Assembly: GCA_947630015.1 (NCBI GenBank)
Contig: CANRFY010000007.1
Span: forward strand, 2,526 to 66,525
Length of the DNA stretch: 64,000 bases
Direction: 5' to 3'
Origin: an uncultured Clostridia bacterium
GTDB lineage: Bacteria; Bacillota; Clostridia; Oscillospirales; CAG-272
The translations under genes were made by a program, and so were the position numbers. Every line of letters begins with the position of its first letter. Position 1 is the stretch's first letter. The notes under the pieces are model-generated. The model searched no databases. It had not been told where the DNA came from and was given only the letters and a program-made list of their open reading frames with translations. This document shows, one piece after another, positions 7,271-61,998 of this stretch.

Positions 7271-7287
7271 CGCGGAGGGGGCAAAGG

Positions 7288-8030
7288 CGGAGCCTTTGCG
7301 AGCCACGCTATCCCTCAGTTATAACTTTTGCAAAGTTAAAAACCGTTAAGGGTCTCTTTGCCGGCCGGCAAAGAGACGCGAGAGCAAAGGTTGAGCCTTT
7401 GCAATCCTATCTTTTACTTTTCACAAACTTTTTCAAAGTTTTTAAATTTTGTTAAGGGCCTCTTTCTCGCAAGAAAGAGGCCCTTAACGATCCCGAAAGA
7501 GGCTCCCGTGTGGCGTCGACGTTATTCAATCGGCGGAAAGAGGGGTTTGGGGCGTAAAACCGCGATATTATTTCATCAAACGCATCCGTGCCTCCGCGCG
7601 GCGGGTCGAGAGCGATGTTATTCTGTCTTGGTCAATTGATTACTGACAGCGTCAGATTTCGCTCGTGTCGTGCGAACAAATGGGATTCACAACGAGATAC
7701 GAGACGGTTCGCACCGGTTGGCGCGCAGTGTCGTGCATCCGTGAGGGTTTATTTCAGGGCGAACGCGATATCGTCCCTGCTAACAGCTCCCACGCGGACT
7801 TATTCGACTGCGCCGCCGAAATTTCGCGATCGATCCGACGCTGGCAGCGACGGACATCGCACGCGCGTGGTGCGCGTAGGTGAGGCTGGAAAGCCTACGG
7901 CACAGGGGGTGATGTGCGGCGAGAGAGGGAGCGCACCGCGATGAGCTGTTCGCGCACACCTTCAGCGCGTTGTTCTTTTCTTGAGGAGTGTGGGGAAGAA
8001 CTTTTTCTTTAGTGCGAAGAAATCCTCCTC
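7288..8030 (+). repeat. Mosaic intergenic repeat copy R1 (alpha-long, beta, gamma1, delta); degenerate tail to about 8190
   Basis: Hairpin H1 7352-7377, hairpin H2 7451-7488, beta core 7489-7767, gamma1 7768-7932; aligns by eye with the six other loci. Confidence 0.9.
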
Positions 8031-8175
8031 CGCAACAACTCTATCCTCACAAAATAACTTTACAAAATCTCACCCCTGACTAAAACTATCCTCTAAAATT
8101 TGGCAACAATAACAAGGAGCCGTTCCCGTATCCATTACAAAAACTATCGTTGCGGCCTCCCCTCTATTGTCCCCC

Positions 8176-8204
8176 TTGACAAGCGGCTAATTATGTGCTA
8201 TCAT
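8176..8204 (+). promoter_or_regulatory. Candidate sigma-A promoter of rnj (TTGACA-N17-TGcTATCAT), giving a ~185-nt leader
   Basis: Exact -35 TTGACA 8176-8181, 17-nt spacer, extended -10 TGC-TATCAT 8196-8204. Confidence 0.45.
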
Positions 8205-8391
8205 TATCATGGTTGATTACGTACTAAACGCGAACTGACGCGTTTACATATATCCCGCGCGCTTAAAATCCCCTGCGCGCACCACTTGACCCCTGTTATT
8301 GCGGGAGGAACCGACGCGGCGCCCCACCGGCGGCGTTTGCGCTTTCCTCTCTTTTCCGCGTGCCTGCGGCATATCATAAGAAAGGAACTAT

Positions 8392-10074: not shown

Positions 10075-10132
10075 CTGAGACGCCTCCGGCGTTCGGCGAA
10101 ATTCAAATCCATACGTAAGAGGAAGCAAAGCT

Positions 10133-10432: not shown

Positions 10433-10456
10433 AAAGGGGGCGCAAGCCCCCTTTTG
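10431..10456 (+). terminator. Rho-independent terminator after Dabb gene
   Basis: AAAAAGGGGGC-GCAA-GCCCCCTTTTG. Confidence 0.8.
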
Positions 10457-10469
10457 TGCTGCCCCTGCG

Positions 10470-11180
10470 GCTGCGACAAAGATTTTCTTTGGCGATGCGC
10501 CACTTCTAATCTAAAACTTTTGCAAAGTTAAAAAAGCGTTAAGGGTCTCTTTGCTGGCCGGCAAAGAGACGCGCGCGCAAAGGATTCTCCTTTGCAATCC
10601 TATCCATTCCTTTTCACAAACTTTTTCAAAGTTTTTAAATTTTGTTAAGGGCCTCTTTCTCGCAAGAAAGAGGCCCTTAACGATCCCGAAAGAGGCTCCC
10701 GTGTGGCGTCAATTCGGCTCAAGTCGGCGGAAAGAATCGCTTGGGGCGTAAACCGCGATTTTATTTTAGCAAACAGTTTCGTGCCTCCGCGCGGCGGGTC
10801 GAGATCGATGCGATCCTGTCTTGGTTAATAGATCACTGATATCGTCAGATTCCGCTTGTGTCGTGCGAACAGCTCCGATTCACAATGAGATACGCGACGG
10901 TTCGCACCGGTTGGCGCGCAATATCGTGCATCCGTGAGGGGTTATGTCAGTGCGAACGCGGGGTTGATTTTGCAAAAATTGTTAGGGCTACGCCGCGAAC
11001 GGATCGAGATCAAAGCGTCAGCGTCGTGGTTAATCGGTTGCTGAGATGGCCAGATCAACCTTGCTTAGTGCGAACAAACGGAACGCACAAAGGGTAACGC
11101 CAGTGTCGCTTTGGCTGGCGTAGGTGGAACAAGGCAACCAGCGATTGCTTACTTTTTGCCACGCAAACGGTAACACGTTT
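10470..11180 (+). repeat. Mosaic repeat copy R2 (alpha-long, beta, gamma2)
   Basis: H2 10644-10681; beta to 10960; gamma2 shared with 27211-27440 and (inverted) 61400-61615. Confidence 0.9.
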
Positions 11181-11231
11181 TTTGTGGACACAGTTTTCCT
11201 CAATATAAATTTTTACAGCAACCGTGACTCA

Positions 11232-11870
11232 ACCCCTCTCGTCGCACCTCATTCCCTGTGCCGTAGGCTTCCCAGCCTCACCTGCGCGCACCGTGCGCGT
11301 GCGATGTCCGTCGCTGCCAGCGTCGGATCGATTGCGACGTTTTGGCGGCGCAGTCGAATAAGTCCGCGTGGGAGCTGTTAGCTGTTAGTGGGATCGCGTT
11401 CGCCCTGACATAAACCCTCACGGAAGCACAAAACTGCACGCCAACCGGTGCAAACCGTCGCGTATCTCATTGTGAATCCCATTTGTTCGCACGACACGAG
11501 CGGAATCTGACGATACCGGCCTCACCCCGTTTGCGACGCTGACGCCTCGATCTCGACCCGCCGCGCGGAGGTACAAAGCTGTTTACCAAAATAATATCGC
11601 GGTTTACGCCCTAAACAATTCTTTCCGCCGATTGAATAACATCGACGCCACACGGGAGCCTCTTTCGGGATCGTTAAGGGCCTCTTTCTTGCGAGAAAGA
11701 GGCCCTTAACATTATTTAAAAACTTTGTAAAGTTTGCAGAAAAGGAAACGATATGATTGCAAAGGAAGCTCCTTTGCGCGGACGCCTCTTTGCCGGCCAG
11801 CAAAGAGGCCCTTAACTCTTTTTTAAACTTTGCAAAAGTTATAGCTTTAGACTGGCGCGAATCGCCTGAA
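11232..11870 (-). repeat. Mosaic repeat copy R3 (alpha-long, beta, gamma1), convergent with R2
   Basis: Reverse complement of the R1-type sequence; H2 11673-11710, H1 11784-11816. Confidence 0.9.
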
Positions 11871-13861: not shown

Positions 13862-13876
13862 TTTATTTTATTTTGA

Positions 13877-13935
13877 GAGGAACTTTTTGAAAAAAGTTCC
13901 CCTCAAACTCCCTTCAAAAACTTTTATTACAAGGG
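13877..13935 (-). repeat. Palindrome family P, copy P1 (immediately 5' of rimO ATG)
   Basis: GAGGAACTTTTTGAAAAAAGTTCCCCTC plus flank CCTTCAAAAACTTTTATTACAAGGG. Confidence 0.85.
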
Positions 13936-14337
13936 TTATTTTTAGATAAATCAAAAACATTTGCTGTCTTCAGGGATAGCTTAAGATAAACACGATTTGG
14001 TCCGCTTTTGGAAGGGAACATCTCCTCGCTTTGCTCGGAGCTGTCACACTTTTCGCGTAGCGGAAAGTGTCCTTTCTACAAAAAGGTTCCTCGCAAACAA
14101 AAAAGTTGCCTCAAGTAAAAGCTTTTTGCTGCTAATATATCAACTATAACAATTCAATCAAAAAATGTTTCTCTCTCGCAACCGTCCGCTCATTCCAATA
14201 TCGTTCTCATCCCTGCGCGCAGATGAAAACGATGCAAATCGTTTTCTCGACTTCGTCCGCGCTGTGAATCGACAGCTCCGCAAAGCCTGATCGCATATAT
14301 CCCCCGCATAACAATCGCCGTTTCCCTCACGCAAACG

Positions 14338-16421: not shown

Positions 16422-16681
16422 TATCTTTTTGAAAAATTCTTGCCCATAAAAAATATGGGGAAAATTTGCCGATGCCGCGGCAAACTCCAAACCTCGCTCC
16501 GCTCGGCGATGCTCGCATTCAAATGCAAGTCAAATGTACCGCACCCCCGAATATACTGTTCAGTTTCCTCTTTCGCCTTTGCAAATCTATCGTTTCTCAG
16601 CGCAGACGAAGTCGAGCATCGAACGTCCCGCACCATCCTCACCCATGTGCAGAGATAATTATTGACAGTAAGACCATTTTT

Positions 16682-16753
16682 CATAAAAGTTTTTGAAAAA
16701 GAGGGGGGTCTGGGGGGAGAAAAAACTTTTTTCAAAAAGTTTTTCCTCCCCCC
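16682..16753 (+). repeat. Palindrome family P, copy P2 (terminator position after lipoprotein gene)
   Basis: flank CATAAAAGTTTTTGAAAAAGAGGGG plus GGGGGGAGAAAAAACTTTTTTCAAAAAGTTTTTCCTCCCCCC. Confidence 0.85.
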
Positions 16754-16768
16754 TATTAAATTCAAAAA

Positions 16769-24744: not shown

Positions 24745-25248
24745 TTCGTTGTCTGCCTTTCTTATTAAATCATAATTTCAAAGTCGAACGTGATCAGCAT
24801 TTTTTCGGTATGTGGAAAAAAAGATAAAATCTCCGCTCGCGAATACATATATATAAATATATTTTAGAATAGTAGAAGTAGAAGAAGTAGGGGATGTGGA
24901 AATGTGGGAAAACGTGAAAAATATCGGTATTGTCGGGTGTATCGGGGTTTTTTATGCGGTCTTTGGCTGTTTTTTTTCGGTGGCTTTTTTGTGGAAAACG
25001 GACGGGAAAATTGGGCGCGATTGTGTATAAATTCCTGTGATCTTTGCGGATGAGGCCGTTTTTTTCGTTTTCAACAGCGGTCGGGAGCCGCTTTTCAAAC
25101 GATTTAAACGGCTGCCGGTTTGGCGCGCAGTCTGTAAAATCGGAGTCGGGACGGGGGAGAGTCCGTGTTTACATGGCGCGTTTTCCACAGGGTTTTCCAC
25201 AGCTTGTTGAAAATATGCGTTTGCCGAATAGAATTTTTACATACGCCG
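24745..25248. promoter_or_regulatory. oriC-like dnaA-dnaN spacer with DnaA-box cluster
   Basis: TGTGGAAAA 24811, TGTGGAAAT 24895, TGTGGGAAA 24903, TGTGGAAAA 24990, TGTGTATAA 25022, TTTTCCACA 25181 and 25193 (TTWTNCACA-type boxes). Confidence 0.7.
24844..24912. promoter_or_regulatory. Candidate unwinding module: AT-rich tract, DnaA-trio run, GC cluster, two DnaA boxes
   Basis: TACATATATATAAATATATTTTAGAA then TAG TAG AAG TAG AAG AAG TAG (24870-24890), GGG, TGTGGAAAT-GTGGGAAA. Confidence 0.55.
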
Positions 25249-26699: not shown

Positions 26700-27440
26700 A
26701 TTAAAACCTTTGTAAAGGTTTAAATGAAACTTTCTCTTTTGCGATTCTCGCTGTTCCTTATCGAAAACCTTTGAAAAGGTTAAAAATAGTTAAGGGTCTC
26801 TTTGCTGGCCGGCAAAGAGACGCGTGCGCAAAGGATTTTCCTTTGCGATCCTATCGTTTCCTTTTCTGCAAACTTTACAAAGTTTTTAAATTTTGTTAAG
26901 GGCCTCTTTCTCGCAAGAAAGAGGCCCTTAACGATCCCGAAAGAGGCTCCCGTGTGGCGTCGACGTTATTCAATCGGCGGAAAGAATTGTTTCGGGCGTA
27001 AACCGCGATATTATTTTGACAAACAGTTTCGTGCTTCCGCGCGGCGGGTCGAGAGCGAGTTTATTCTGTCTTGGTAAATCGATTCCTGACAGCGTAAGAT
27101 TCCGCTCGTGTCGTGCGAACAGCTCCGATTCACAAAGAGATACAAGACGGCTCGCACCGGTTGGCGCGCAATATCGTGCATCCGTGAGTGTTTATGTCAG
27201 TGCGATCGCGGGGTCACGTTGATAAAAACGTTAGGGCTGCATCGCGAACGGGTCGATATTAAAGCGTCAGCGTCGCAAACGGAATGTGGCTTGTATAGCC
27301 GGATTATCCTCGCGTGGTGCGAACAGCTCTGACGCACAAAGGGAAACGCCAATTTTGCTGGGTAGGCGTAGATGGAACAGGGCAACCAGCGATTGATTGC
27401 TTTTCGCCAAGCAAGTGGACAACAAACAATTACAAATTTC
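26700..27440 (+). repeat. Mosaic repeat copy R4 (alpha-long, beta, gamma2)
   Basis: H1 26789-26822, H2 26895-26932, beta to 27210. Confidence 0.9.
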
Positions 27441-27960
27441 TTGCCAAGAAAACGGGCGTTGTGTTTCTTTTCTTGAGGGTGTTTGAGGGAGGTTCTTTTC
27501 TTTCCCAAAGAAAAGAATCTCACCTCAAAATTAACGGTTCTTTTCTTTTTCAAAGAAAAGAAGCTCACCTCGTAAAAAAGTGGCGCTGGAATTTATATGC
27601 CTTATGGATTTTAGCGCGTCAATGAAAGCAAACGTCCCGCGAAGAGCTGTTCGCACACAGCGAACGCGCGTTGTTCTTTTGGAGAGGGGGTTCGGGGGAG
27701 GACCCTTTCTTTTGAAGAAAGGGTCCTCATCCACAACTGAATCTTTGCAAGAAATGGTCTTCATCCCACACCGGCTCTTTACAAGAAAAGGTCCTCATCC
27801 CAGACCGCATTATTGTGCGAAAAGTCCTCATTCCGATGCGATTTTTAACGAAACTCCTCATCCTGAAACTGTCTTTTAACGAAGAAATCCTCATCCCGAA
27901 TCGGCTTTTATGCGTAAAGAGAACCGCTGATATAATTTCAAATTTTTATAAGAGTTTAGA
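27441..27960 (+). repeat. Mosaic interior: small hairpins (TTCTTTTCTTT-N-AAAGAAAAGAA), delta module and periodic tail
   Basis: delta CCGCGAAGAGCTGTTCGCAC...GAGGACCCTTTCTTTTGAAGAAAGGGTCCTC at 27636-27735, also at 31750-31850 and 53541-53633. Confidence 0.8.
27715..27930 (+). repeat. Six-unit tandem array, period 30-34 nt, core TCCTCATCC
   Basis: Cores at 27724, 27758, 27792, 27825, 27855, 27888; each unit ends CTTT.CAA/TTTAAC + GAAA. Confidence 0.8.
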
Positions 27961-28075
27961 CAATGCATGGCGAGTATTGCAATGGAAAATTCTTTACTCA
28001 CGCGCCTCTTTGCCGGCCAGCAAAGAGACCCTTAACTCTTTTTTAACTTTGCAAAAGTTATAGCTGAGATATGGC
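27960..28075 (-). repeat. Solo inverted alpha fragment (H1 plus outer palindrome)
   Basis: H1 28004-28036, AACTTTGCAAAAGTT 28045-28059. Confidence 0.85.
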
Positions 28076-28095
28076 GAGAATCGCGAAGGAATCCC

Positions 28096-28314
28096 CTATC
28101 GGCGATACTCGAGCAGATCGCCGGGCTGGCAGTCGAGGACCTCGCAGAGCTTCGTCAACGTCGAAACCCTGATCGCCTTCGCCTTCCCATTTTTGAGAAT
28201 AGAAATATTCGCCATCGTTATACCGACTCTGTCGGAAAGCTCCGTTACCGACATTTTGCGCTTCGCGAGCATGACGTCGATATTGAAAATAAGTTCGCCT
28301 GACGGTTCGTTCAT
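28096..28314 (-). CDS. YozG-like XRE-family HTH transcriptional regulator
   Basis: 72 aa; MSVTELSDRVGITMANISILKNGKAKAIRVSTL HTH. Confidence 0.85.
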   Translation of the reverse strand: MNEPSGELIFNIDVMLAKRKMSVTELSDRVGITMANISILKNGKAKAIRVSTLTKLCEVLDCQPGDLLEYRR

Positions 28315-31050: not shown

Positions 31051-31074
31051 GATTTTCCTTTTGAAAAAGGGGGA

Positions 31075-31945
31075 AAAGGGATGGGGAAGGTTTCTCCTTG
31101 GCGATTCTATCCATTACTCATCTAAAACTTTTACAAAGTTAAGAAAGAGTTAAGGGTCTCTTTGCTGGCCGGCAAAGAGACCCTTAACAATCCGAGAAAA
31201 CGGCGTGCCGGTGGCGTCGATTCCGCTCCAGTCGGCGGCAGGGGCGTTTCGGGCGTAGACCGCGATATTATTTCGTCAAGCGCGTCCGTTCCTCCGCGCG
31301 GCGCGTCGAGATCGAGGCGTCAGCGTCGCAAACGGAATGAGACTGGTATCGTTAGATTTCGCTCGTTTCGTGCGAACAAATGGGATTCACAACGAGATAC
31401 GAGACGGTTCGCACCGGTTGGCGCGCAATATCGTGCATCTGTGAGGGTTTATGTCAGTGCGAACGCGATATCGCCAACAGCTAACAGCTCCCACGCGGAC
31501 TGATTTGACTGCGCCGAATGAAATGTCGCGACCGATCCGACGCTGGCAGCGACGGGCATCGCACGCGCGTTGTGCGCGTAGGTGAGGCTGTAAAGCCTAC
31601 GGCACGGTGGGTGAGGTGCGGCGAGAGAGGGAGTGATTTGTGGTAGGTGTAAAAACTTATGCCAAAGAAAATTGCGCCCACCGAAGTGAGCGCATTGTTT
31701 TTAGATATCTGATTTGTTTGCGCGTTGATGGCACTTGCGCGATAAAAACAAACGCTCCGCGAAGAGCTGTTCGCACCCAGCAAACGCGCGTTGTTCTTTT
31801 GGAGAGGGGGTATGGGGGAGGACCTTTTCTTTTAAGAAAGGGTCCTCATCCCTAACCGCATCTTTGCAAGAAAAGATTCACATTTCAGACAATCAATTTT
31901 CGCAAAAAGCACTTATCTATGGCTGTCTTCAAAAATTCAAGTAAC
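31075..31945 (+). repeat. Mosaic repeat copy R5 (alpha-short, beta, gamma1, J, delta, tail)
   Basis: Single 40-nt perfect hairpin 31149-31188; beta to 31467; gamma1 to 31632. Confidence 0.9.
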
Positions 31946-34887: not shown

Positions 34888-34962
34888 TCATAAAAGTTTT
34901 GAGGGGTTCTTAGGGGGACTTTTGTAAAAGTCCCCCTAAGCGGGGTGCGGGGCAGCGCCCCG
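34888..34962 (+). repeat. Palindrome family P, copy P6 plus adjacent GC hairpin (after parB, before serS)
   Basis: flank GTCATAAAAGTTTTGAGGGG, CTTAGGGGGACTTTTGTAAAAGTCCCCCTAAG, then CGGGGC-agc-GCCCCG. Confidence 0.8.
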
Positions 34963-34967
34963 TATTA

Positions 34968-35867
34968 TTAAATATTATCAATTGCGTCGCCGCAGAGGAA
35001 GCGGAGAAGCGATTCGAGGTCCTTGTTGTCCTCGTAGCCGAGGGAGATATACTTTTGTTTGCCGCGCGATTTGATCAAAACGGGCCTGCCGAGCGCCTCG
35101 CGCGCTTTGTCCTCGAGGACGCGCACATAATCCACATCGACGCGGGAATCGGACGCGTTCATGTCCTGTTCGGCGTTAGCATCGCGCGCCGACGCTCTGT
35201 TCATCGATTTCGCCGCAGTTTCAGCCGTGCGCACCGACATCCCCTCGCCGATTATGCGATCGGCTAAAATCGGGATGTTGAGGCGATCCGACAGAGAGAG
35301 AAGCGCGCGCGCGTGTCCCGCCGTGATCTCCCCAGACCGCAGAAACGGCACCACCGAAGGCGGAAGATCGAGCAGCCGCAGCGAATTTGCAACCGACGAA
35401 CGCGATTTTCCTATCCTCGACGACAATTCCTCCTGCGTGAGACCGAACCGATCAATGAGCGCCGCATACGCTTCCGCTTCTTCATATGCGTTTAAATCCT
35501 CACGCTGCACATTTTCCACAAGCGATATCTCCGCCGTCGACATTTCATCGGCGTCAAGCACGATCGCGGGAATCTCGGAAAGCCCCGCAAGGCGCGCCGC
35601 GCGCCATCTGCGTTCGCCGGCGATTATGACGTATGCGTCCGGCGCTGTTTCGGATACGAGGATCGGTTGAAGCACTCCGTGCGCCGAGATCGATTCCGAA
35701 AGCTGGCGCAGCGATTCTTCGTCAAATGTTTTGCGCGGCTGATCAGTCCTCGGCTCGACGGACGATATCGGCAGCTTGTAAACGCGATCGGCGGATAAAA
35801 GATCGCTGCCGGATGTGTTGTCGATGAAAATTTCGTCAAGACCGCGCCCGAGAGGTTCTCTTTTCAA
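34968..35867 (-). CDS. parB: Chromosome partitioning protein ParB/Spo0J
   Basis: 299 aa; LGRGLDEIF, GVLQPILV, IIAGERRWRAA; TTG start. Confidence 0.93.
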   Translation of the reverse strand: MKREPLGRGLDEIFIDNTSGSDLLSADRVYKLPISSVEPRTDQPRKTFDEESLRQLSESISAHGVLQPILVSETAPDAYVIIAGERRWRAARLAGLSEIPAIVLDADEMSTAEISLVENVQREDLNAYEEAEAYAALIDRFGLTQEELSSRIGKSRSSVANSLRLLDLPPSVVPFLRSGEITAGHARALLSLSDRLNIPILADRIIGEGMSVRTAETAAKSMNRASARDANAEQDMNASDSRVDVDYVRVLEDKAREALGRPVLIKSRGKQKYISLGYEDNKDLESLLRFLCGDAIDNI

Positions 35868-37659: not shown

Positions 37660-37849
37660 GGTTTTTGTCCTTTCGCTTTGTCTGTACGGTCATCATACAC
37701 CGCCGCGCGGGGAAAATCGTGGCGAGTCCGCAGCGTGAGAAATAATTTGTTTTGGCCTGCGGTGCGGATAAAGCGAGTCTTTTTGGGGAAAAGGGGGAGT
37801 TGCGCTCCCCTTGCCCCACGGTTGTAACTTTTGTAAAAGTTGGGAAAAG

Positions 37850-38690
37850 AGATTCCTTGGCGATTCACGATGCTGTTTATATAAAAGTTTTGCAAAAGTT
37901 AAGAAAAGTGTTAAGGGTCTCTTTGCTGGCCGGCAAAGAGACGCACGCGCAAAGGATGAACCTTTGCAATCCTATCTTTTACTTTTCACAAACTTTTTCA
38001 AAGTTTTTAAATTATGTTAAGGGCCTCTTTCTCGCAAGAAAGAGGCCCTTAACGATCCCGAAAGAGGCTCCCGTGTGGCGTCAATTCGGCTCCAGTCTGC
38101 GGAAAGAAGGGGTTGGGGCGTAAACCGCGATTTAAATTTAGTAAGCGCGATCGTGCCTCCGCGCGTCGGGTCGAGAGCGAGGCGATTCTGTCTTGGTTAA
38201 TCGTTTACTGACATCGTCAGATTTCGCTCGTGTCGTGCGAACAGCTCCGATTCACAAAGAGATACGAGACGGCTCGCACCGGTTGGCACGCAGTTTTGTG
38301 CATCCGTGAGTGTTTATGTCAGGGCAAACGCGATTTTATTTTTTGCTAACAGCTCCCACGCGGACTTATTTGACTGCGCCGCCTGAAATGGCGCAGTAAA
38401 TCTGACGCTGGCAGCGTCGGACATCGCACGAGTTCGGTGCGCGCAGGTGAGGCTGGGAAGCCTACGGCACAGGGGTGAGGTGCGTCGATAGAGGGGAAGA
38501 TTGGCAAATTTTGTATAAACTCATTTTAAAGAAAACTGCGTCGAACAAAGTGAGCGCATTGTTTTTCGTGGATATCAAAGTTGTTCGCGCGTTGATGGCA
38601 CTCAGGCGAAAGAATAACCATACCGCGAAGAACTATTCGCACTCAGCGTCAGCGCGGTATTCTTTTATTTCCTTTTCCGCCATACAAATC
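37850..38690 (+). repeat. Mosaic repeat copy R6 (alpha-long, beta, gamma1, J, delta-like)
   Basis: H1 37910-37942, H2 38016-38053, beta to 38332, gamma1 to 38495. Confidence 0.9.
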
Positions 38691-45760: not shown

Positions 45761-47125
45761 TTATGTGATCGTTACCTCGATCACGTTTGCGGGGCCGCCG
45801 ACGAATATCCTGTCGCCGGAATGTATCTTAAGCTCCGCGCCCGGTTTAACCTTGTACGTGCCGTTCAGCATCGTGCCGTATGTGGAGTTCAGATCCTTTA
45901 CGGTCCATGTGCCGTAATTATACTGGATGCTGCAATGGTGACGGCTGACGCCGGCAGCCTCCGGCGGGAATTTTACGTCGCATTCGTCGTCTCGGCCGAT
46001 CATGATCGCCTTGCCCGTCGAGGTCGTGAACGCCGTGGACTGGATGCCGCCCATGACGCATCTGACGCTTATGTTCTTTCCCCTCGGCGACGACGCGCGC
46101 GACGACGCATAATATACGGGCTGCGCCGGCGTCGGCGGCGTATATGCCATAGGCGTTACCGGCGGCGCGCCGACTGTGGCGATCTGGTGCAGGCACATCC
46201 GCGTGATCCAGAGCGTAATGATCCACAGTATGACGATGATCCCCGTATATTTGAACAGCTCAAGCGTAAAATCGTCGAACAGCGGCGTGTTCCAGAGAAA
46301 ATGGAGCGCGTTCGACGCCGCGAAGGTCAATATGAACGGGATATTGAAGAAGCTCTCGAGACCGAATTTGTTGTTTTTCATGTTAAGCGCTATCGCCGCC
46401 GCATACGGAGCGCAGTAAAGCGTATGTCCGCCGAGGGCGAAAACTCCTCTCATTATCTGATTCGTTATCATGCTGTCGATCGTCGGCATCGCGATCGCGT
46501 ACTGCACCGACTCGAACGCGCCGAAGCCCGCGCCGACGGCGGCTCCGATCACGAGTCCCGTAATGCCGTAGATGCGGCGCTTCTGCTTGAAGATCGCGAT
46601 CAGGATGATCGCCGCGATCAATTTCGCCGGTTCTTCCCTGAGCGGAGCGAAGCTCGCCGGCAGCTCATCCGGCACGACGAGCATCATGATCGCCGTCATC
46701 GCCAGCGAGATGAGCGCGCCGAGGATGAACATCCCGAACACCTCAAATATCGAGATGTTGCGCGGGATATTGAGTTCCCAGAAGAACACGAGCAGTATGA
46801 TCGGCATAACGAGCGGCGGGATTATCGACGCCATGTAAAGCAGCGCCAAAAGCTGGCCGTCGATCGCGAATATCGAGATAAGGAATATGGCGTAGATGAG
46901 AAGGACAAGAACGATTCCGCCCTTCAGCATCGGGTAAAACAGCCACGGCTTGCGCCATTTTTGCAGCATCGTCTCCTCCGACGCGGTGTCGAGCGACGTG
47001 CCTGCCAAAAGCGCGTAATCGAAATCGGTGCGCGAATGCTTCACCCTGCATTCGGAGAACACGTCGCGCCATGTTATCAGCGACGCGTCCTGCCGCGCCT
47101 TGTAGAAAAATGTCCTGTTGCTCAT
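45761..47125 (-). CDS. PrsW-like intramembrane protease fused to C-terminal FHA domain
   Basis: Polytopic; REEPAKL and GFGAFES motifs as in PrsW proteases; C-terminal FHA (IMIGRDDECDVKF..VSRHHCSI...DLNSTYGTMLNG). Confidence 0.75.
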   Translation of the reverse strand: MSNRTFFYKARQDASLITWRDVFSECRVKHSRTDFDYALLAGTSLDTASEETMLQKWRKPWLFYPMLKGGIVLVLLIYAIFLISIFAIDGQLLALLYMASIIPPLVMPIILLVFFWELNIPRNISIFEVFGMFILGALISLAMTAIMMLVVPDELPASFAPLREEPAKLIAAIILIAIFKQKRRIYGITGLVIGAAVGAGFGAFESVQYAIAMPTIDSMITNQIMRGVFALGGHTLYCAPYAAAIALNMKNNKFGLESFFNIPFILTFAASNALHFLWNTPLFDDFTLELFKYTGIIVILWIITLWITRMCLHQIATVGAPPVTPMAYTPPTPAQPVYYASSRASSPRGKNISVRCVMGGIQSTAFTTSTGKAIMIGRDDECDVKFPPEAAGVSRHHCSIQYNYGTWTVKDLNSTYGTMLNGTYKVKPGAELKIHSGDRIFVGGPANVIEVTIT

Positions 47126-48576
47126 AACGGCTCGCCCCGCTCCGTGACGGCCGCATACAGCGGCGCGTCCCGCGCCGCGTCAGCCTCCGCATATATGGCG
47201 GGCGCATCGTCCGCCGCGTCCGGCAGCGTCAAATTCGGCGCCGCCGTTTTCAGCGCGAAGCTGATGAGGAATATGAAGAATCCGAGCATCAAAAGCGCGG
47301 CCGCGGCGCACGCGACGACAAGTATCACCTTTTCGGTGCTGTTCAGCATCTGCGGACGCGGCATATTGTTCTGCCACATCATCTGATTCATCTGATTCAT
47401 CGGCTGCTGCTGATTCATTTGATTCATTTGATTCATCTGCTGCTGCTGATTCATCTGATTCATCGGCTGCTGCTGATTCATCTGATTCATCTGATTTATT
47501 TGCGGGTTCATCTGCTGTCCCGACGTCGGATTTATCTGCGCGGGCGGCGTTTGATTTGCCGCCTGTCCCGACGTCTGACCGATCCGCTGTCCCGCTCCGT
47601 TCGACGGCGCGGGCATATCGAGCGCCCTGCGGAACGCCCCCATCGTGGCGAATCTGCCGCTCACATTGACGTTCAGTCCCTGAAGCAGCGCCGCTTCCTT
47701 TGCGGGCGGTATTTCGACTCCGAGTCCGCTCGGCGGGACGAGCTTGTCGTTATCCATCCTCTCGATCGATTCCGGCGGCTTCACTCCCGTTATCGCGTAA
47801 TAATAGCTTGCGGCGAGCGAGTACACGTCCGTGTACGGCCCCTGCTTTCCGTGCCTTGAATACTGCTCCTTCGGAGCGAATCCGTGCTTGAGTACGATGT
47901 CGAGACTGCAGCTCTTATCGCCGAGGCTGTATCTCGCCGCGCCGAAATCGAGCAGCTTGACGCCGCCGCTCTTTGTGATGAAAATGTTGTCCGGCGTGAC
48001 GTCGCGGTGGATGATCCCCTCGGCGTGGACGGCGTCGAGCGCGTCCATTATCGGCAGAAGAACGCGTTCCGCGTCCCGCCATCCGATCTTTCCGCCGTGA
48101 TCGCGAATGTATTTCTGGAAGCTCTCGCCCTCGACGTAATCCATGACGAAATACGCGGTGCCGTTTTCCTCGAAATAGCTGTGTATGCGGACGATATTGT
48201 CGTTGCCGATGAATTTTGCGAGCGTTTCCGCTTCCTTTAGGAAGCATTCCTTCCCGTACTCGAAATTATCTCTGCGTTCGCCGACGTAGGACGTCACCTC
48301 GTGAGTCCCCGTCCGCGTCGCGAATTCGTCGGGGAGATACTCCTTGACCGCCATTATGCCGTCCGTCTTGTAGTCCTTGGCCACATACGTTATGCCGAAG
48401 CCGCCCTGACCGAGTACGCGGCCGAGTATGTAGCGTCCGTTCAAAACGGAGCCGTGCGGAAGCGCGAGCGGATATTCCTCCGCCGCCCCCGACGGATCGT
48501 AGCCGCAGTACGGGCAGGCGCCGCCCTCCTCCGCCTTTTCGCGAAAGCAGTTATAACAAATCAGTTTCTCGTTCAT
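47122..48576 (-). CDS. Ser/Thr protein kinase 1 (N-terminal Zn ribbon, Q/N/M-rich linker, C-terminal TM)
   Basis: CYNCF...CPYCGY; GQGGFGITY, AVKEY, HRDVTPDNI, DFGAAR; stop overlaps PrsW-FHA start (ATGA). Confidence 0.93.
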   Translation of the reverse strand: MNEKLICYNCFREKAEEGGACPYCGYDPSGAAEEYPLALPHGSVLNGRYILGRVLGQGGFGITYVAKDYKTDGIMAVKEYLPDEFATRTGTHEVTSYVGERRDNFEYGKECFLKEAETLAKFIGNDNIVRIHSYFEENGTAYFVMDYVEGESFQKYIRDHGGKIGWRDAERVLLPIMDALDAVHAEGIIHRDVTPDNIFITKSGGVKLLDFGAARYSLGDKSCSLDIVLKHGFAPKEQYSRHGKQGPYTDVYSLAASYYYAITGVKPPESIERMDNDKLVPPSGLGVEIPPAKEAALLQGLNVNVSGRFATMGAFRRALDMPAPSNGAGQRIGQTSGQAANQTPPAQINPTSGQQMNPQINQMNQMNQQQPMNQMNQQQQMNQMNQMNQQQPMNQMNQMMWQNNMPRPQMLNSTEKVILVVACAAAALLMLGFFIFLISFALKTAAPNLTLPDAADDAPAIYAEADAARDAPLYAAVTERGEPL

Positions 48577-48612
48577 ACGACATCCCTCAAGCTGTATGAT
48601 TTGCGATCGACA

Positions 48613-50991
48613 TCATATCTGCGACTGATCGGCGAGCCTTATTACCTCGGTATCGATGAGCGCCCTTCCGTAGATTCGGTACTCGTCGAGCTGACCCGTG
48701 AAATATTCGCCGCTTTCCCACGGCGCGTATCCGATAAACACGACGCTGTTGTCGCCTAAGATATCGTGCATCGTATGGTTCGCGTCGGTCACCTCCATAT
48801 TCCACTGGAGTACCCCGTTAAAATAGAATTTAAGTCTGTTCGTCTTGCTGTTGAACGAGAACGCGACATGGTGCCATTCGGGTTCGCGTCCGAATTTCGT
48901 AACGGTGTTCACCATCCACGTATAACGGCGCTGAAAGTCTGAATACTCGCAGTTGTAGTATTCGGCGTTTACCGTCGTTTCGGTTTCCAATATGCCTATA
49001 TAGCGCTCATGTTCATATATGGGGACGAGGACCTCGGCGTCCATTCCGCCGCCGACGCGCGGACCCGCGAAAAATTCCCATTTCGACGCTGCCGCGGGAG
49101 TTGTCTTAGCCCAGTACGACACAGTGAACGAATCGAGTCCCGACATAAGCGGCGAGCCGTCGGCCTTGCTGATCTCGAGCCAGAACCGGTTATTGGGGGT
49201 TCGGACGAAGTCAAGCGCGCCGTTCTTCACGCCGTCGGCTGCGAATGTCGGCGTACCGTTTACGGTCTTGACCGAAACGCCGTCGTATGAAAGACCGCTC
49301 TCCGCGTCATCGAACGTAAGCCTCATAAGAAGTCCGTCCGGCACGATAACTGTCTCGGGCGCATCCGTGCCGGCGGCCGTATTGCCGTCGGTTTCATCGC
49401 CGGTCTGCGCACCGCCGCGCGTCATTGCGACGACGACGGCAGCGACCGTGATCCCGCATACGAGAAGCGCCGCCGCGAGTATAATTATCAACGTGGCTTT
49501 GCCCTTTTTGCGCGGCTTTTCGGCGCTTGCGGCCTTTTCCGCTTTTGCGGCTTTTTTAGCCTCTGCGGCTTTTTTAGCTTCTGCGGCCTTTTTAGCCTCC
49601 GCGGCCTTTTTAGCTTCTGCGGCTTTTTTAGCCTCTGCGGCCTTTTTGGCTTCCGCAGCCTTTTTAGCTTCTGCGGCCTTTTTAGCCTCTGCGGCCTTTT
49701 TAGATTCCGCAGCCTTTTCCGCTTCTGCGAATTTTTCCGTTTCTGCGGGTTTATCTTCCTGATCGAATCCGAATTCGCGCGCGCGGACGAGTACCGTATG
49801 CCCGTCGCCGCCCTCATATCCCGCGACCGTCGGCGTAATCTCTTCCTTCTGCGGCTCCGGCTGCTGTTCCTGCTGCTGTTCAGGCTGCGTCTTTACGCGC
49901 GGCAGCTTGTGCGTCGGCGGCTCCGGCAGAGGCGCCGCCTCCTGCTGTTTCAGCTTGCGCTGCGTCTCCGGCGGCGGATCCACCATCATCGGCGGCGGGG
50001 TAACCGTCTCGGGCGTCTCGGGCGGTCTTTCGCCCGTCAGCGCCGCGTGGAAATCCGTCATGCGGCTGAATCTTTCCGCGGGCTGGACGCTCAGACCCTT
50101 GAGGATCGCGTCCTCGACGTTTTCGGGTATATCTATGCCGAGATTGCTCGGCGGGATAAGATCGTCCTCATCCATTCTTTCGACGGAATCCGGCGGCTTT
50201 TTGCCCGTGATCGCGTAGTAGAACGACGCCGCGACCGAGTACACGTCCGTGAACGGCCCCTGCCGCCCGTGTCTCGTGTACTGTTCCTTCGGCGCGAATC
50301 CGTGCTTAAGCACGATATCGAGACTGCGGCTCCTGTCGCCGAGGCTGTATCTTGCCGCGCCGAAATCGAGCAGCTTGACCTCGCCGTCGTCGGTTATTAT
50401 TATGTTGTCGGGCGTAACGTCGCGGTGGATGATCCCCTTTGAATGGACGGCGTCGAGCGCGTCCATGATCGGGATCAGGATGCGTTCTGCATCCTGCCAG
50501 CTTATCTTCCCGCCGGAGTCGGCGATGTACTTTTCAAAGCTGACGCCCTCGACGTAATCCATGACGAAGTACGCGGTGCCGTTTTCCTCAAAATAGCAGT
50601 GTACGCGAACTATATTCGGATTGCCTATGAACTGTGCGAGCGTCTCCGCTTCCTCGAGAAAGCACTTTTTTCCGTACTCGAAATTCTCGCCGCGCTTCCC
50701 GGGATGCGCCAGCACCGTCAACGGTCCCGAGCGCGTCGCGACGGCGTCGGGAAGAAATTCCTTTATCGCGACAAGCTGGCCCGTTTTCCATTCCTGCGCA
50801 ACGTATGTGATGCCGAATCCGCCCTGGCCGAGTACGCGGCCGAGAATGTACCGCCCGTTCAGTATTGTTCCGTGCGGCAGCGCGACGGGATATTCCTCGC
50901 GCTCGTGAGTCGGATCATAGCCGCAGAGCCGGCAGACGTCCTCGCCGGCCGGTAAAGCGTGAAAGCAATTATAGCAAATTCCGCTGCTCAT
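48613..50991 (-). CDS. Ser/Thr protein kinase 2 (Zn ribbon, KKAAEA repeats, TM, LamG-like ectodomain)
   Basis: CYNCF...CRLCGY; kinase motifs as above; C-terminal ...LDEYRIYGRALIDTEV typical of LamG/ConA-like jelly-roll domains. Confidence 0.9.
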   Translation of the reverse strand: MSSGICYNCFHALPAGEDVCRLCGYDPTHEREEYPVALPHGTILNGRYILGRVLGQGGFGITYVAQEWKTGQLVAIKEFLPDAVATRSGPLTVLAHPGKRGENFEYGKKCFLEEAETLAQFIGNPNIVRVHCYFEENGTAYFVMDYVEGVSFEKYIADSGGKISWQDAERILIPIMDALDAVHSKGIIHRDVTPDNIIITDDGEVKLLDFGAARYSLGDRSRSLDIVLKHGFAPKEQYTRHGRQGPFTDVYSVAASFYYAITGKKPPDSVERMDEDDLIPPSNLGIDIPENVEDAILKGLSVQPAERFSRMTDFHAALTGERPPETPETVTPPPMMVDPPPETQRKLKQQEAAPLPEPPTHKLPRVKTQPEQQQEQQPEPQKEEITPTVAGYEGGDGHTVLVRAREFGFDQEDKPAETEKFAEAEKAAESKKAAEAKKAAEAKKAAEAKKAAEAKKAAEAKKAAEAKKAAEAKKAAEAKKAAKAEKAASAEKPRKKGKATLIIILAAALLVCGITVAAVVVAMTRGGAQTGDETDGNTAAGTDAPETVIVPDGLLMRLTFDDAESGLSYDGVSVKTVNGTPTFAADGVKNGALDFVRTPNNRFWLEISKADGSPLMSGLDSFTVSYWAKTTPAAASKWEFFAGPRVGGGMDAEVLVPIYEHERYIGILETETTVNAEYYNCEYSDFQRRYTWMVNTVTKFGREPEWHHVAFSFNSKTNRLKFYFNGVLQWNMEVTDANHTMHDILGDNSVVFIGYAPWESGEYFTGQLDEYRIYGRALIDTEVIRLADQSQI
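49545..49715 (-). repeat. In-frame 18-nt tandem repeat encoding (KKAAEA)n in kinase 2
   Basis: GCGGCCTTTTTAGCYTCT units repeated about 8-9 times. Confidence 0.9.
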
Positions 50992-51033
50992 TTCTGTCCC
51001 TCGGATATGATTTTTCGTATATGTGTCAAGGCG

Positions 51034-53310
51034 TTAGTCCTTCGTCATTATGTTGCGCCAAGATTCAACGTAGCACTGACCGTAATGATTATAGCCGACC
51101 GCGACGACGGAGCCGTCTTCACGCACTCCCACGGTATGAAGCAACCCCGCAGAGACAGCGACAAGATGACTCCATTCGGATCCGTCTACCTCGGATCTGC
51201 CGAATTTGGTGCTGTCATCGCCGACTGACACAGCCGTTCCGTCAGCTTTAAGTCCGACCGTATGGAAAGCATGAGCCGAGATCATCACGATGTCGCGCCA
51301 ATCTCCGACATCGCATTGACCGTTAGAGTTGTTTCCGACGGCTACGACGGTTCCGTCGAGCTTAAGCCCGAGCGTAAAGTTTTCGCTGGCTACGATCTGT
51401 ACGATATCATGCCAATCCTCGACGTTGCACTGGCCGTAATCATTATTTCCAACCGCGACGCACGTTCCGTCTCTGAGCAGCGCGACCGTGTGGTTAAATC
51501 CCGCTGAAATCGCGATAACATCGCTCCAGCCGCCCACATTAAGATCGCCGTTAATGCCTCCGCCGACAGCGACAACTGTCCCGTCGCTTCTGAGTCCGAC
51601 CGTATGCACATTTCCTACGTCGATGGAAATTATATTGCTCCAGTCCCCAACGTTGCACTGGCCGTATTCATTATCACCTACAGCTACGCACGTTCCGTCC
51701 TCGCGCAGTCCGACCGAAAACGCGTGACAGCCGTTATCGTCGTTATAATAACCTCCGGCCGCGACCGAGATAATGTTCGTCCATCCGCCCACATCGCATT
51801 CGTTCGTTTCGTTGCATCCCGTCGCCATGACAGTGCCGTCATTTTTGATCGCGAGCGTATGCATCGGCCCTGCGGAAATTGTATTTGTGAGGTAATACCC
51901 CACCTCATAAACGACCGAACCGCTTGACGGCGGCTCCGTCTCGGGCGGATTCGTTACAGGCGGTTCCGTCTCGGGCGGGTTTGTTACAGGCGTTTCCGTT
52001 CCCTCGTTCGGCCCCGACGGAATGATCACGCCGCCGATCCTATCGGTGTCGTCGTCGTCATTGCCGTGGTTGTATCCGTCCGTGTCGTCTCTGTATGACG
52101 GCACGTAGGGTTCGTCGTCCTGCATCAGGCTTGAGACGCCGACCGCGATCAGAACCGCGATCGCAACGACGCCTGCCAATATCGCGGGGATGAGCCATTT
52201 CGGCATCTTTTTCTTCGGCTGCTGCACCGGCGGAATGAACGGCGGCAGAATGCCCTGTCCCGATCCGTATGGCGTCGTCTGCGTCGTCTGCGTGTACGGC
52301 GGCTGCACGCCCTGCGAGCCGGACATATTCTGCACGGGAGGTGCGAGAAGAGCTGCCTTGAACGCCGCCATGCGCTGGAAGCGTCCCGATTCGTTGACGC
52401 TCAGTCCCTGAAGGATCGCGGCCTCGACGTTTTTCGGTATATCGGGGCAGTATGCGCTCGGCGGGACGAGTCTGTCGTCCTCCATGCGTTCGATCGATTC
52501 CGGCGGCTTTTTGCCCGTCACGGCGTAATAGAACGTCGCCGCGAGCGCGTAAACATCGGTGAACGGCCCCTGTCTGCCGTGCTGTTTATACTGCTCCTTC
52601 GGCGCGAAGCCATGCTTCAGCACGATATCGAGACTGCAGCTTCTGTCGCCGATGCTGTATCTTGCCGCGCCGAAATCGATCAGCTTTACGCTGCCATTCG
52701 ACGTTATCATTATATTATCGGGCGTGACGTCGCGATGTATGATGCCCTCGGCATGGACGGCGTCGAGCGCGTCCATGACGGGGAACAGGAAATTCTCCGC
52801 CTCGCGCCAGCCGATCTTTCCGCCCTTGCTCTCGATATAACGCTGAAGGCTGACGCCCTCGACGTATTCCATCGCGAAATAGCCCGTCCCGTTTTCCTCG
52901 AAATAGCTTTTGACATGGACTATATTCGGATGCGAGTTGAATTTGGAGAGCATCTGAGCTTCCTTAAGGAAGCAGTCCTTCCCGTATGTAAAGTTCTCGG
53001 CGCGTTCGCCCGTATATGGGGTGATCTGGCATCCGCCCGTTCTCGATGCGAGAGAGTCGGGCATATATTCCTTTATGGCGATGAGGGATTTTGTTTTCCA
53101 TTCCTGCGCCACATATGTGATGCCGAATCCGCCCTGGCCGAGTACACGGCCCGTTATGTAGCGTCCGTTTAAAACGGAGCCGAGGGGCAATGCCGCAGGG
53201 AACAGTCCTTCATCGCGCGCCGGATCATATCCGCAGTGCGGGCAGGCTCCGGATTCCGGTTTTTCGCGAAAGCAGTTATAGCACAAGCTGGCGTTCATAT
53301 ATTTCCTCAT
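51034..53310 (-). CDS. Ser/Thr protein kinase 3 (Zn ribbon, TM, RCC1-like repeat ectodomain)
   Basis: CYNCF...CPHCGY; kinase motifs; about 7 repeats of HTVGL..DGTVVAVG.N..GQC.V..W..I. Confidence 0.9.
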   Translation of the reverse strand: MRKYMNASLCYNCFREKPESGACPHCGYDPARDEGLFPAALPLGSVLNGRYITGRVLGQGGFGITYVAQEWKTKSLIAIKEYMPDSLASRTGGCQITPYTGERAENFTYGKDCFLKEAQMLSKFNSHPNIVHVKSYFEENGTGYFAMEYVEGVSLQRYIESKGGKIGWREAENFLFPVMDALDAVHAEGIIHRDVTPDNIMITSNGSVKLIDFGAARYSIGDRSCSLDIVLKHGFAPKEQYKQHGRQGPFTDVYALAATFYYAVTGKKPPESIERMEDDRLVPPSAYCPDIPKNVEAAILQGLSVNESGRFQRMAAFKAALLAPPVQNMSGSQGVQPPYTQTTQTTPYGSGQGILPPFIPPVQQPKKKMPKWLIPAILAGVVAIAVLIAVGVSSLMQDDEPYVPSYRDDTDGYNHGNDDDDTDRIGGVIIPSGPNEGTETPVTNPPETEPPVTNPPETEPPSSGSVVYEVGYYLTNTISAGPMHTLAIKNDGTVMATGCNETNECDVGGWTNIISVAAGGYYNDDNGCHAFSVGLREDGTCVAVGDNEYGQCNVGDWSNIISIDVGNVHTVGLRSDGTVVAVGGGINGDLNVGGWSDVIAISAGFNHTVALLRDGTCVAVGNNDYGQCNVEDWHDIVQIVASENFTLGLKLDGTVVAVGNNSNGQCDVGDWRDIVMISAHAFHTVGLKADGTAVSVGDDSTKFGRSEVDGSEWSHLVAVSAGLLHTVGVREDGSVVAVGYNHYGQCYVESWRNIMTKD

Positions 53311-53382: not shown

Positions 53383-53536
53383 GATTTTGGTTAATTTTTT
53401 TGTAATAGTTTGTCATTTGAAAGATGAGGAGGGGGAAGGCGAGGCTATTTTCTTTAAAAAGAAAACAACCTCACCTTGCAAAAAGGTGGGGGTTGAAAGT
53501 CTATGGCAGGGGATGTTAGTGCGTCGGTCGAAGCAA

Positions 53537-53640
53537 CCGCCCCGCGAAGAGCTGTTCGCACACAGCTTCAGCGCGTTGTTCTTTTGGAGAGGGTGTTTGG
53601 GGGAGGACCCTTTCTTTTGAAGAAAGGGTCCTCAGCCCAA
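53537..53640 (+). repeat. Solo delta module
   Basis: CCGCGAAGAGCTGTTCGCACACAGC...hairpin 53603-53633. Confidence 0.85.
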
Positions 53641-53895
53641 TCAGCCTCTTTTCCGCGAAAAGAGGCCCTTAACATAATTTAAAAACTTTATAAAGTTTAA
53701 AGAAAAGTAAACGATAGAATCGCAAAGGAAAATTCTTTGCCCTCGCACCTCTTTGCCGGCCGGCAAAGAGACCCTTAACTCATTTTAACTTTTGCAAAAG
53801 TTTTAGATGCGGAAAGGCAAGTACCGCGAAGGAAAAACTTTGCTTCAACCTTTTCTAAAGTTTGCAAAAAGGAAAGGATAGAACCCCCCCATGAA
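53640..53895 (-). repeat. Solo inverted alpha-long module plus a second alpha fragment
   Basis: H2 remnant 53645-53673, H1 53748-53780, palindrome 53787-53802, fragment 53825-53890. Confidence 0.85.
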
Positions 53896-60647: not shown

Positions 60648-60694
60648 TATGCGCCCGAGGCCCGCGCGGGCGGGGGTTTGATGCACACACCTGC

Positions 60695-61400
60695 GAAAGC
60701 TTTTGCAAAGTTAGAAAGGCGTTAGGGCGATTCCTTGGCGGTACGCGCCGGTCCTTATCTAAACTTTTGCAAAGGTTTTAGTTAAATTTTCTCTTTCGCG
60801 ATACTCCCCAGTCCTCATCTAACACTTTTTCAAAGTTTAAAAAGAGTTAAGGGTCTCTTTGCTGGCCGGCAAAGAGACCCTTAACAATCCCAGAAAACGG
60901 CGTGCCGGTGGCGTCGATACGGCTCCAGTCGGCGGAAAGAATTGTTTCGGGCGTAAACCGCGATCTTATTTTGGCAAACAGTTTCGTGCTTCCGCGCGGC
61001 GCGTCGAGATCGATGTTATTATGTCTTGGTTAATTGATTCCTGACAGTGTTAGATTCCGCTCGTGTCGTGCGAACAGATGGGATTCACAAAGAGATACGC
61101 GACGGTTTGTTCCGGTTGGCGCGCAGTTTCGTGCATCCGTGAGTGTTTGTGTCAGTGCGAACGCGATCTCGTCAACTGCAAACAGCTCCCACGCGGACTT
61201 ATTCGACTGCGCCGCCGAAACGTCGCGATCGATCCGACACTGGTAGCGACGGACATCGCACGCGCGTAGTGCGCGCAGGTGAGGCTGGAAAGCCTACGGC
61301 ACAGGGGATGAGGTGCATCGAGAGGGGGATGTGGCGCGGTTGCTGTAAAACTAATGTTGAGGCAAGTTGCGCGCACTCGCAAATAAGCGCGTTGCCGTTC
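60695..61400 (+). repeat. Mosaic repeat copy R8 (triplicated outer palindrome, alpha-short, beta, gamma1, J)
   Basis: Hairpin 60846-60885; beta to 61165; gamma1 to 61330. Confidence 0.9.
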
Positions 61401-61975
61401 GCGTGGCTATAAGCAATCATCCGCTGGTTGCCCTGCTCCATACACGCCCACCAAAGCAAAACTGGCGTTTCCCTTTGTGCGTTCAATTTGTTCACACTAC
61501 GCGAGGATTATTTGACCATCCATGCTACATTTCGTTTGCGACGCTGACGCCTTAATATCGACCGGTTCGCGTCGAAGTCCTATCGCTTTTGCCAACACAA
61601 CCCCGCGTTTGCCCTGACACAAACCCTCACGGATGCACGACACTGCACGCCAACCGGCACGAACCGTCTTGTATCTCTTTGTGAATTAGAGCTGTTCGCA
61701 CGACACGAGCGGAATCTGACGCTGTCAGCCTCATCCCGTTTGCGACGCTGACACATTGCTCTCGACCCGCCGCGCGGAGGCACGAAACTGTTTATCAGGA
61801 TTATATCGCGGTTTACGCCCCAAACAATTCTTTCCGCCGACTGGAGCCGAATTGACGCCACCGGCACGCCGTTTTCTCGGATTGTTAAGGGTCTCTTTGC
61901 CGGCCAGCAAAGAGACCCTTAACTCTTTTTTTAACTTTGCAAAAGTTACAGATGAGGAATGTATAGAATCGCGTA
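61400..61975 (-). repeat. Mosaic repeat copy R9 (alpha-short, beta, gamma2), convergent with R8
   Basis: Hairpin 61884-61923, palindrome 61933-61947. Confidence 0.9.
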
Positions 61976-61998
61976 AGAGAAAGTTACCCCTCAATTGC

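Follow-up and report, generated by a model that had tools for sequence, protein, structure and literature searches.

A clade-restricted mosaic intergenic repeat family that coincides with gene-order breaks in an uncultured gut Clostridia bacterium

In a 64,000-nucleotide stretch of contig CANRFY010000007.1 from an uncultured Clostridia bacterium (the whole stretch is referred to as the window), the first-pass annotation described blocks of genes separated by repeat loci. This raises the question of what these repeats are, and whether they made the boundaries or mark them. The assembly (G000) has 69 contigs totalling 2.39 Mb, and the window is part of its contig 7. All genomes used were draft metagenome-assembled genomes (MAGs), and the related genomes are not independent samples. 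The copies of the repeat were found outside genes and almost never between genes of conserved adjacency. With about even confidence, the loci are read here as a lineage-specific, non-coding, selfish mosaic interspersed repeat of the type represented by the repetitive extragenic palindromes (REPs), bacterial interspersed mosaic elements (BIMEs) and Neisseria intergenic mosaic elements (NIMEs), persisting only in junctions without functional coupling.

Repeat finding in the window, together with a cross-match of the individual gaps to all other parts of the genome, identified one large, dispersed and modular family lacking open reading frames (ORFs) and present in both orientations at seven intergenic loci (Table 1). 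This confirmed the repeats at the places between gene blocks where they had been described, and each of the seven intervals matched 45–64 other places in the genome. The labels given to the neighbouring genes were backed by Pfam (Mrp, RNase J, Dabb, PgsA, DnaA, BspA-type LRR, MORN, ParA/ParB-Noc, ThiF/TcdA, PP-loop/TtcA, FHA, kinase, RsmG and MnmG). Every window gap exceeding 600 nt, seven in total, contained the family, consistent with the earlier remark that hardly a large gap lacks repeat sequence. That relation contains some circularity, since it is the repeat of 0.4–1.4 kb that makes these gaps large; subtracting it leaves 23–356 nt of unique spacer in each. The density of family loci in the window was approximately three times the genome average (7 per 64 kb compared to 89 per 2.39 Mb).

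To define the gene blocks of the window without reference to the repeats, collinearity in four congeners lacking the family was used, and the tallies are our own readings. Internally collinear in these congeners were the Mrp operon, rnj-Dabb, pgsA to dnaA (block A), MORN to noc (block C), a small HTH-type block and tcdA-ttcA; the same blocks were joined differently from the window. All six informative window junctions with a repeat were synteny breaks, compared to five of the 28 without one, the other 23 being conserved (Fisher p = 3e-4). Breaks lacking a repeat were found in the window between ttcA and the FHA operon at 40.4 kb, and in the sugar locus at 56.1, 56.8–56.9 and 57.95 kb. The earlier observation of repeats at the block boundaries was upheld, with these repeat-free breaks as a qualification. 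The synteny comparison that had been proposed as a check placed breakpoints at the repeats, and the repeat-free relatives differed from the window in gene order.

The coincidence was also seen beyond the window. In a comparison that took in 1.52 of the ~2.0 Mb of the repeat-free congener G008, one of 18 repeat junctions had kept its adjacency. Among repeat-free junctions whose gap was 100 nt or longer, 117 of 225 had done so (p = 9.5e-5; p = 0.004 when stratified by junction type). Restricting the test to repeat-bearing contigs gave one of 18 versus 34 of 73 kept (p = 0.001). For 16 of the 17 broken repeat junctions, the flanks were on different G008 contigs. In the reverse test, the repeat junctions of the two other carriers of the family, the sister species G009 and G016, were adjacent in G000 in four of 24 cases, compared to 46 of 63 repeat-free neighbouring junctions (p = 2e-6); these four were empty in G000, corresponding to insertion without rearrangement. 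Together with the within-contig control, these tests indicate that repeats and breakpoints truly coincide, to an extent that a regional effect does not explain.

The same data viewed from the G008 side gave 247 adjacencies broken in G000, with a repeat at 43 of the 494 ends (~9%), and at two of 926 ends where adjacency was conserved. The two ends of a broken adjacency were occupied independently of each other: both ends had a repeat in two cases (1.75 expected) and one end in 36 (36.5 expected).

A BLAST search with the window loci found 89 family loci in G000, amounting to 67.8 kb or 2.8% of the genome. Their overlap with genes, as called with a simple codon-usage caller, was 133 bp. Occupancy was highest for convergent junctions (33 of 237, 14%), lower for divergent (10 of 228, 4.4%) and lowest for tandem junctions (29 of 1433, 2%), and 58 of the 117 gaps of at least 800 nt held the family. 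Among the origins suggested by the first-pass annotation, accumulation wherever insertion is tolerated was the best fit to this order of occupancy, to the avoidance of genes and to the independence of the break ends. A rule that the element always points with the upstream gene was tried and rejected. The overall bias was 43:20, which arises automatically from the enrichment in convergent gaps, and the orientation in tandem gaps was 14:10, that is, no preference. The possibility that the flanking genes are accessory was also rejected, as G008 orthologues were found for 45% versus 50%, a difference that was not significant.

The distribution over the assembly was very uneven, with 14 loci on contig 2, nine on contig 9 and eight on contig 7, and no family loci on eight contigs (C1, C3, C5, C8, C10, C13, C14 and C16; 768 kb, including the 216 kb and 143 kb contigs). 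The family is thus concentrated on ~45% of the assembly, whose contigs are unordered; the concentration may reflect a chromosomal region, for example the origin-proximal half.

An alignment of eight window copies revealed the modular build of the element. One or two alpha units come at its head, followed by a beta body of ~280 nt, one of two alternative gamma modules (gamma1 or gamma2), a delta tail and, in some copies, a 34-nt tandem epsilon array, with the combination of modules differing from locus to locus. The alpha unit contains a small hairpin (GCAAAGG-N5-CCTTTGC), the palindrome AACTTTNCAAAGTT and a perfect 38-nt head hairpin with a stem of 17 bp, for example GTTAAGGGCCTCTTTCTCGCAAGAAAGAGGCCCTTAAC. 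Copy numbers in the genome were 66 for beta, 44 for gamma1, 30 for gamma2, 54 for delta and 69–88 for alpha (38-nt head hairpin). The core, found in three sister species, is a unit of ~250 nt made up of the head hairpin and two conserved segments; the G000 elements are enlarged to 0.6–0.75 kb through internal module insertions, often with the one or two alpha units in front. Inverted pairing was frequent, and all six paired loci were inverted pairs with arms of 250–600 nt. Pairings were both heads-out and heads-in, and a copy's closest relative was not its pair partner. The repeat copies are old: the mean pairwise identity of beta copies was 81% (~19% diverged), and the nearest-neighbour copy was 91% identical. 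The longest exact tracts common to different loci had a median of 54 nt and a maximum of 116 nt, none reaching 127 nt.

No ORF was common to more than 9 of the 66 copies and the substitutions showed no 3-nt (codon) periodicity, so a coding origin was rejected. A search of Rfam gave no match at the gathering score, and chance-level matches only at E values up to 1. In consensus folding of the 66 G000 copies, and of 21 short-form copies from three species, two-sided compensatory changes were found in the head hairpin only; a structured RNA body was ruled out by the absence of covariation beyond it. A tRNA-derived short interspersed nuclear element was also rejected, the window having no tRNA genes.

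With regard to mobility, the genome contained no REP-associated tyrosine transposase (RAYT, a Y1 tyrosine transposase); the single trace, located on contig C50, was an IS200-like C-terminal fragment of 81 aa that a DDE insertion sequence (IS) interrupts. No multi-copy transposase was found in G000. An IS110 partner was rejected, since G000 has no real copy and the presence of IS110 across the genus does not follow the repeat. Phage, plasmid and viral-contig collections yielded no match to the repeat. No consistent terminal inverted repeat and no consistent flanking duplication were found; outside the repeat, flanking direct repeats of at least 13 nt were absent except in one 134-nt case, and duplications shorter than 9 nt are unresolvable because the element ends are mosaic.

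The exceptional case is on contig C33 of G000, where a 134-nt perfect direct duplication (6416–6549 and 7721–7854), consisting of a gene 3′ end including the stop codon, lies around a 1.17 kb repeat locus. Its right-hand joint is within a truncated gamma2-like unit and has the microhomology ACG in common. This duplication is unique among the 89 loci and could be a template switch or duplication at the repeat, or an assembly artefact. At the locus of the IS200-like TnpA fragment (C50:5897–8650, locus L011), the fragment has as neighbours a relaxase-like ORF and a gene for a DDE (rve-type) transposase of 323 aa. The GC content of contigs C40–C45 is much lower (0.40–0.53). The C50 locus and these contigs probably represent a plasmid, an integrative element or foreign DNA that was binned with the genome.

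Among 41 relatives searched, the family was carried outside G000 only by G009 and G016, which are of the same genus (19 genomes); the other 16 of the 18 congeners lacked it entirely, and it was not found in 150 further genomes of the taxonomic family spanning 97 genera. Outside the genus, the genomes covered numbered about 170, drawn from its family and order. The gyrA of the window was 90% identical in G009, 88% in G016 and at most 77% in all others. As the carriers are G000 and its two nearest relatives, the family is confined to one small clade. The sister-species element is a short form of ~250 nt, containing the head hairpin, the first part of beta and gamma1, mostly in head-to-head pairs, and G000 holds both this form and a long form with ~200 nt inserted. 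Among the 48 sister-species gene ends adjoining a repeat, seven (15%) also adjoined one in G000. Repeat positions are thus mostly unshared between species, which implies that the family moved or expanded separately in each.

Two further observations concern the sister species. G016 has two versions of gyrA, on contigs C65 and C60, 98% and 88% identical to that of the window, so its bin may mix a strain of the G000 species with its own species. In G009, a filled site (L205:2650–3000) has several promoter-like units, (T)GnTATAATAAA...ATGCCAAA, followed by a hairpin, before the repeat, which points to additional mosaic modules peculiar to the sister species.

If the loci are a selfish repeat, the copies would spread through a copying process, probably trans-acting or recombination-based, and would persist only at sites where an added 0.3–1.4 kb leaves operons, promoters and shared regulatory regions intact. 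The surviving sites would be those between independent transcription units, above all convergent gene ends. Because evolution is free to break these same uncoupled junctions, the repeats would mark block boundaries without having to create them. Likewise, since the occupied junctions are those of independent transcription units and conserved adjacencies are almost never tolerated as sites, each block boundary of a repeat-dense window would come to have a repeat. The homology tracts and long inverted pairs that the copies add may occasionally mediate rearrangements, but this would not be their main relation to the boundaries.

Several results weigh against this interpretation. Tolerance alone predicts that some occupied convergent junctions should keep their adjacency, yet none of ten did, compared to a baseline of 12 of 39 (31%; p about 0.02–0.09). 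Four adjacencies common to three or four repeat-free genomes were broken in the G000 lineage (C2:46842 with C30:3267, C30:4731 with rnj, dnaA with C2:102528, and noc with C2:98512), and repeats were present at six of the eight new ends, a count that comes from a window chosen for its repeats. G009 has the Q block (C2:102528–107040) in inverted orientation, the junction being occupied by a repeat. Lineage-specific breaks numbered 12 in G000 versus one in G006, a suggestive excess that lost significance (p = 0.08) after correction for 39% sampling of G006. The stretches of exact identity between loci have a length sufficient for RecA-type recombination, and a transposase partner for the copying was looked for in the genome and not found.

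These points lead to the closest competitor, in which the repeats were the substrates that made the boundaries, through homologous recombination of dispersed copies or breakage at long inverted pairs. This was considered possible, though clearly less probable than the selfish repeat. In its favour, 17 of 18 repeat junctions were broken relative to G008, 16 of the 17 with flanks on different contigs, and the sister-species repeat junctions were broken relative to G000 in 20 of 24 cases compared to 17 of 63 neighbouring junctions (p = 2e-6). The breaks here in adjacencies stable in three or four repeat-free genomes, with repeats at six of eight ends, the exact shared tracts of up to 116 nt and the inverted arrangement of all six paired loci also fit, and there are precedents in the inversion mediated by Correia repeat enclosed elements (CREE) in gonococci (PMC3454330) and in the NIME arrays proposed as recombination substrates (PMC1797815).

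Reciprocal exchange, however, predicts repeats at both ends of a broken adjacency, that is, at both products, as expected of a repeat-mediated hotspot. Two double-sided and 36 one-sided cases were found, as under independence, a result that speaks against repeat-mediated reciprocal exchange having been the principal process. Repeats were absent from 91% of broken ends, and from 10 of the 12 G000-specific breaks in a three-way comparison with G006 and G008. The copies are on average 19% diverged, and the 15% of repeat-flanked gene ends common to the sister species is contrary to an exchange of flanks at inherited repeats. Furthermore, repeat-free congeners rearrange the same blocks: the order is C-X-A in G004 and A-X-C in G006 and G008, and noc never adjoins rsmG in the four repeat-free congeners. 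The scattering of origin-proximal genes, for which the first-pass annotation had suggested the repeats as substrates, therefore partly predates the family. Of that suggestion the strong coincidence of repeats and breakpoints stands, whereas a general causal role is not supported, given that only ~9% of broken ends have a repeat and that the ends are independent. A contributing role in some rearrangements is possible, as for Correia-type elements in gonococci (PMC3454330).

It is unlikely that the repeats are functional RNA or transcription elements, such as terminators, insulators or stabilisers of mRNA 3′ ends, selected at operon ends. The head hairpins, with their 17 bp stems, do lie 10–100 nt past the stop codons of many genes, and the stem is kept by two-sided changes within and between species. 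REPs of E. coli stabilise upstream mRNA, which also counts for this explanation. The hairpin is not followed by a U-tract in the sense direction of the element, however; its T-rich tail and terminator-like score are on the antisense strand only. Terminator-like sites were not enriched relative to shuffled expectation (4 versus 7.3±2.7 and 16 versus 18.1±4.2), Dabb has its own canonical intrinsic terminator ahead of R2 and the orientation in tandem gaps (14:10) is indifferent. Moreover, 16 of 18 congeners do without the family, and the 450–600 nt of extra body sequence is not accounted for. The earlier proposal that the repeats act as operon insulators or terminators thus has no support from the sequence.

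A more speculative idea, and one we would give little credence, is that the head hairpins are the recognition sites of a dedicated recombinase, here only predicted, such that the loci excise and re-insert blocks as a NIME- or integron-like chromosome-wide shuffler in one Clostridia clade. If true, it would account for the small blocks flanked by repeats on both sides (rnj-Dabb and C30:3267–4731), for the breaks in adjacencies stable in four congeners and for the compensatory change that keeps the hairpin.

Least probable is that the breakpoints are false, produced by MAG contigs mis-joined across repeats: although the genomes are all drafts, 12 of 138 contig ends lie within repeats, one locus has the odd 134-nt perfect flanking duplication and G016 has two gyrA versions, the copies differ by ~19% on average with the nearest neighbour at 91% identity, the longest exact inter-locus matches (median 54 nt) do not reach 127 nt, the same pattern came from three independent assemblies and the blocks are internally collinear with four others.

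Returning to the selfish repeat, the family was compared with known systems and is a new, clade-restricted set of hairpin-based mosaic intergenic repeats of the kind seen in BIMEs and NIMEs. Like the REPs and BIMEs of Enterobacteria and Pseudomonas, it is high-copy, strictly extragenic (133 bp in genes) and lineage-specific, combines a palindromic hairpin with other motifs in mosaic order, and is often located just past stop codons or between convergent genes. In contrast to them, it is built from much bigger units, with a core of 250 nt, elements of as much as 750 nt and loci of as much as 1.4 kb; it has no sequence similarity to them, and G000 has the IS200-like fragment in place of a RAYT/Y1 transposase.

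NIMEs, composed of dRS3 and RS units, are intergenic mosaic elements of Neisseria whose arrays are proposed recombination substrates (PMC1797815). They resemble the present family in that conserved inverted-repeat motifs alternate with variable modules that are swapped between copies, in the restriction to one genus and in a proposed link to recombination of neighbouring genes (PMC1797815). Unlike in NIMEs, the dRS3 inverted repeat ATTCCC-N8-GGGAAT had no match in the window with one mismatch allowed, no hairpin-targeting phage recombinase is known in G000, and the link is to gene-order breaks rather than to allele exchange.

CREE-mediated inversion has been shown in gonococci, where CREE and IS-like elements are found at synteny breakpoints (PMC3454330); these too are non-autonomous repeats at chromosomal breakpoints whose inverted copies can mediate inversions. 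CREE, however, end in defined inverted repeats and duplicate a TA target, features that were not found consistently in the G000 family, and the breakpoint ends in G000 are occupied independently of each other. Miniature inverted-repeat transposable elements and foldback non-autonomous transposons are similar in being non-coding, with tens of copies, inverted arms of 250–600 nt and presence/absence polymorphism between sister species. The G000 family differs from these in having no autonomous parent or multi-copy transposase, in the occurrence of both heads-out and heads-in pairs and in that paired copies are not closest relatives.

Table 1. Repeat loci of the window and associated sites (window coordinates)
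Feature	Position	Strand	Modules	Setting	Repeat-covered interval
R1	7275–8039	+	Two alpha units (small hairpin, AACTTTNCAAAGTT palindrome, 38-nt head hairpin), beta, gamma1, delta	Between last Mrp gene (stop at 7270) and rnj	7275–8039
rnj promoter-like site, strong	8176–8204			Outside R1	
Dabb intrinsic terminator	10436–10462			Ahead of R2	
R2	10433–11190	+	alpha, beta, gamma2	Begins right after the intrinsic terminator of Dabb	10433–11866
R3	11233–11866	−	alpha, beta, gamma1	Inverted partner of R2; head against pgsA stop codon; pair heads outward	10433–11866
R4	26700–27900	+	alpha, beta, gamma2, delta, 34-nt tandem epsilon array (27711–27807)	Upstream of dnaA, divergent	26700–28095
Solo inverted alpha (head) unit	27940–28095	−	alpha	Directly after stop codon of 72-aa gene 28096–28314	26700–28095
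R5	31058–31909	+	alpha variant, beta, gamma1, delta, epsilon	Convergent gap between LRR gene and MORN gene	31058–31909
R6	37823–38666	+	alpha, beta, gamma1, delta	Between noc/parB (divergent) and tcdA	37823–38666
Fragment, tail	53511–53651	+	delta/epsilon tail		53441–53869
Fragment, head	53659–53869	−	Inverted alpha head	After PIG-L gene stop	53441–53869
R8	60695–61330	+	alpha, beta, gamma1	After glycoside hydrolase gene (stop at 60647)	60695–61985
R9	61340–61985	−	alpha, beta, gamma2	Inverted partner of R8; head against rsmG stop codon	60695–61985

Other repeated sequences were observed in the window. A different, smaller hairpin repeat at 34804–34967 (CTTAGGGGGACTTTTGTAAAAGTCCCCCTAAG plus flanks; ~80 genome matches) is located after the stop codon of the gene 34968–35867, inside block C, whose adjacency is conserved in four congeners. 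A second multi-copy family at 13862–14070 and 16597–16754 (~18 and four genome matches, respectively) is inside the collinear pgsA to gyrA block and is abundant in G009 too, with many matches to 13877–14071. Smaller hairpin repeats are therefore tolerated inside conserved blocks, unlike the large family. The 504-nt dnaA-dnaN spacer (24745–25248) is among the few large gaps without multi-copy sequence and is a candidate oriC region. Within 47600–53250, three consecutive genes (47122–48576, 48613–50991 and 51034–53310) have stretches of 70–79% identity every 2.3–2.4 kb; they are a tandem array of paralogues within the FHA/kinase operon and contain coding repeats of 9 and 18 nt; the product of the third is a Ser/Thr kinase with RCC1 repeats.

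For this clade of uncultured gut Clostridia, the results provide a quantified case in which the positions of an abundant repeat predict gene-order change almost perfectly, with ~94% of occupied junctions broken compared to ~50% of comparable empty ones. The approach also separates repeats that mark breakpoints from repeats that make them. In practical terms, repeats of this kind mark the boundaries of transcription units and synteny blocks in draft genomes, and flag assembly breaks in MAGs.

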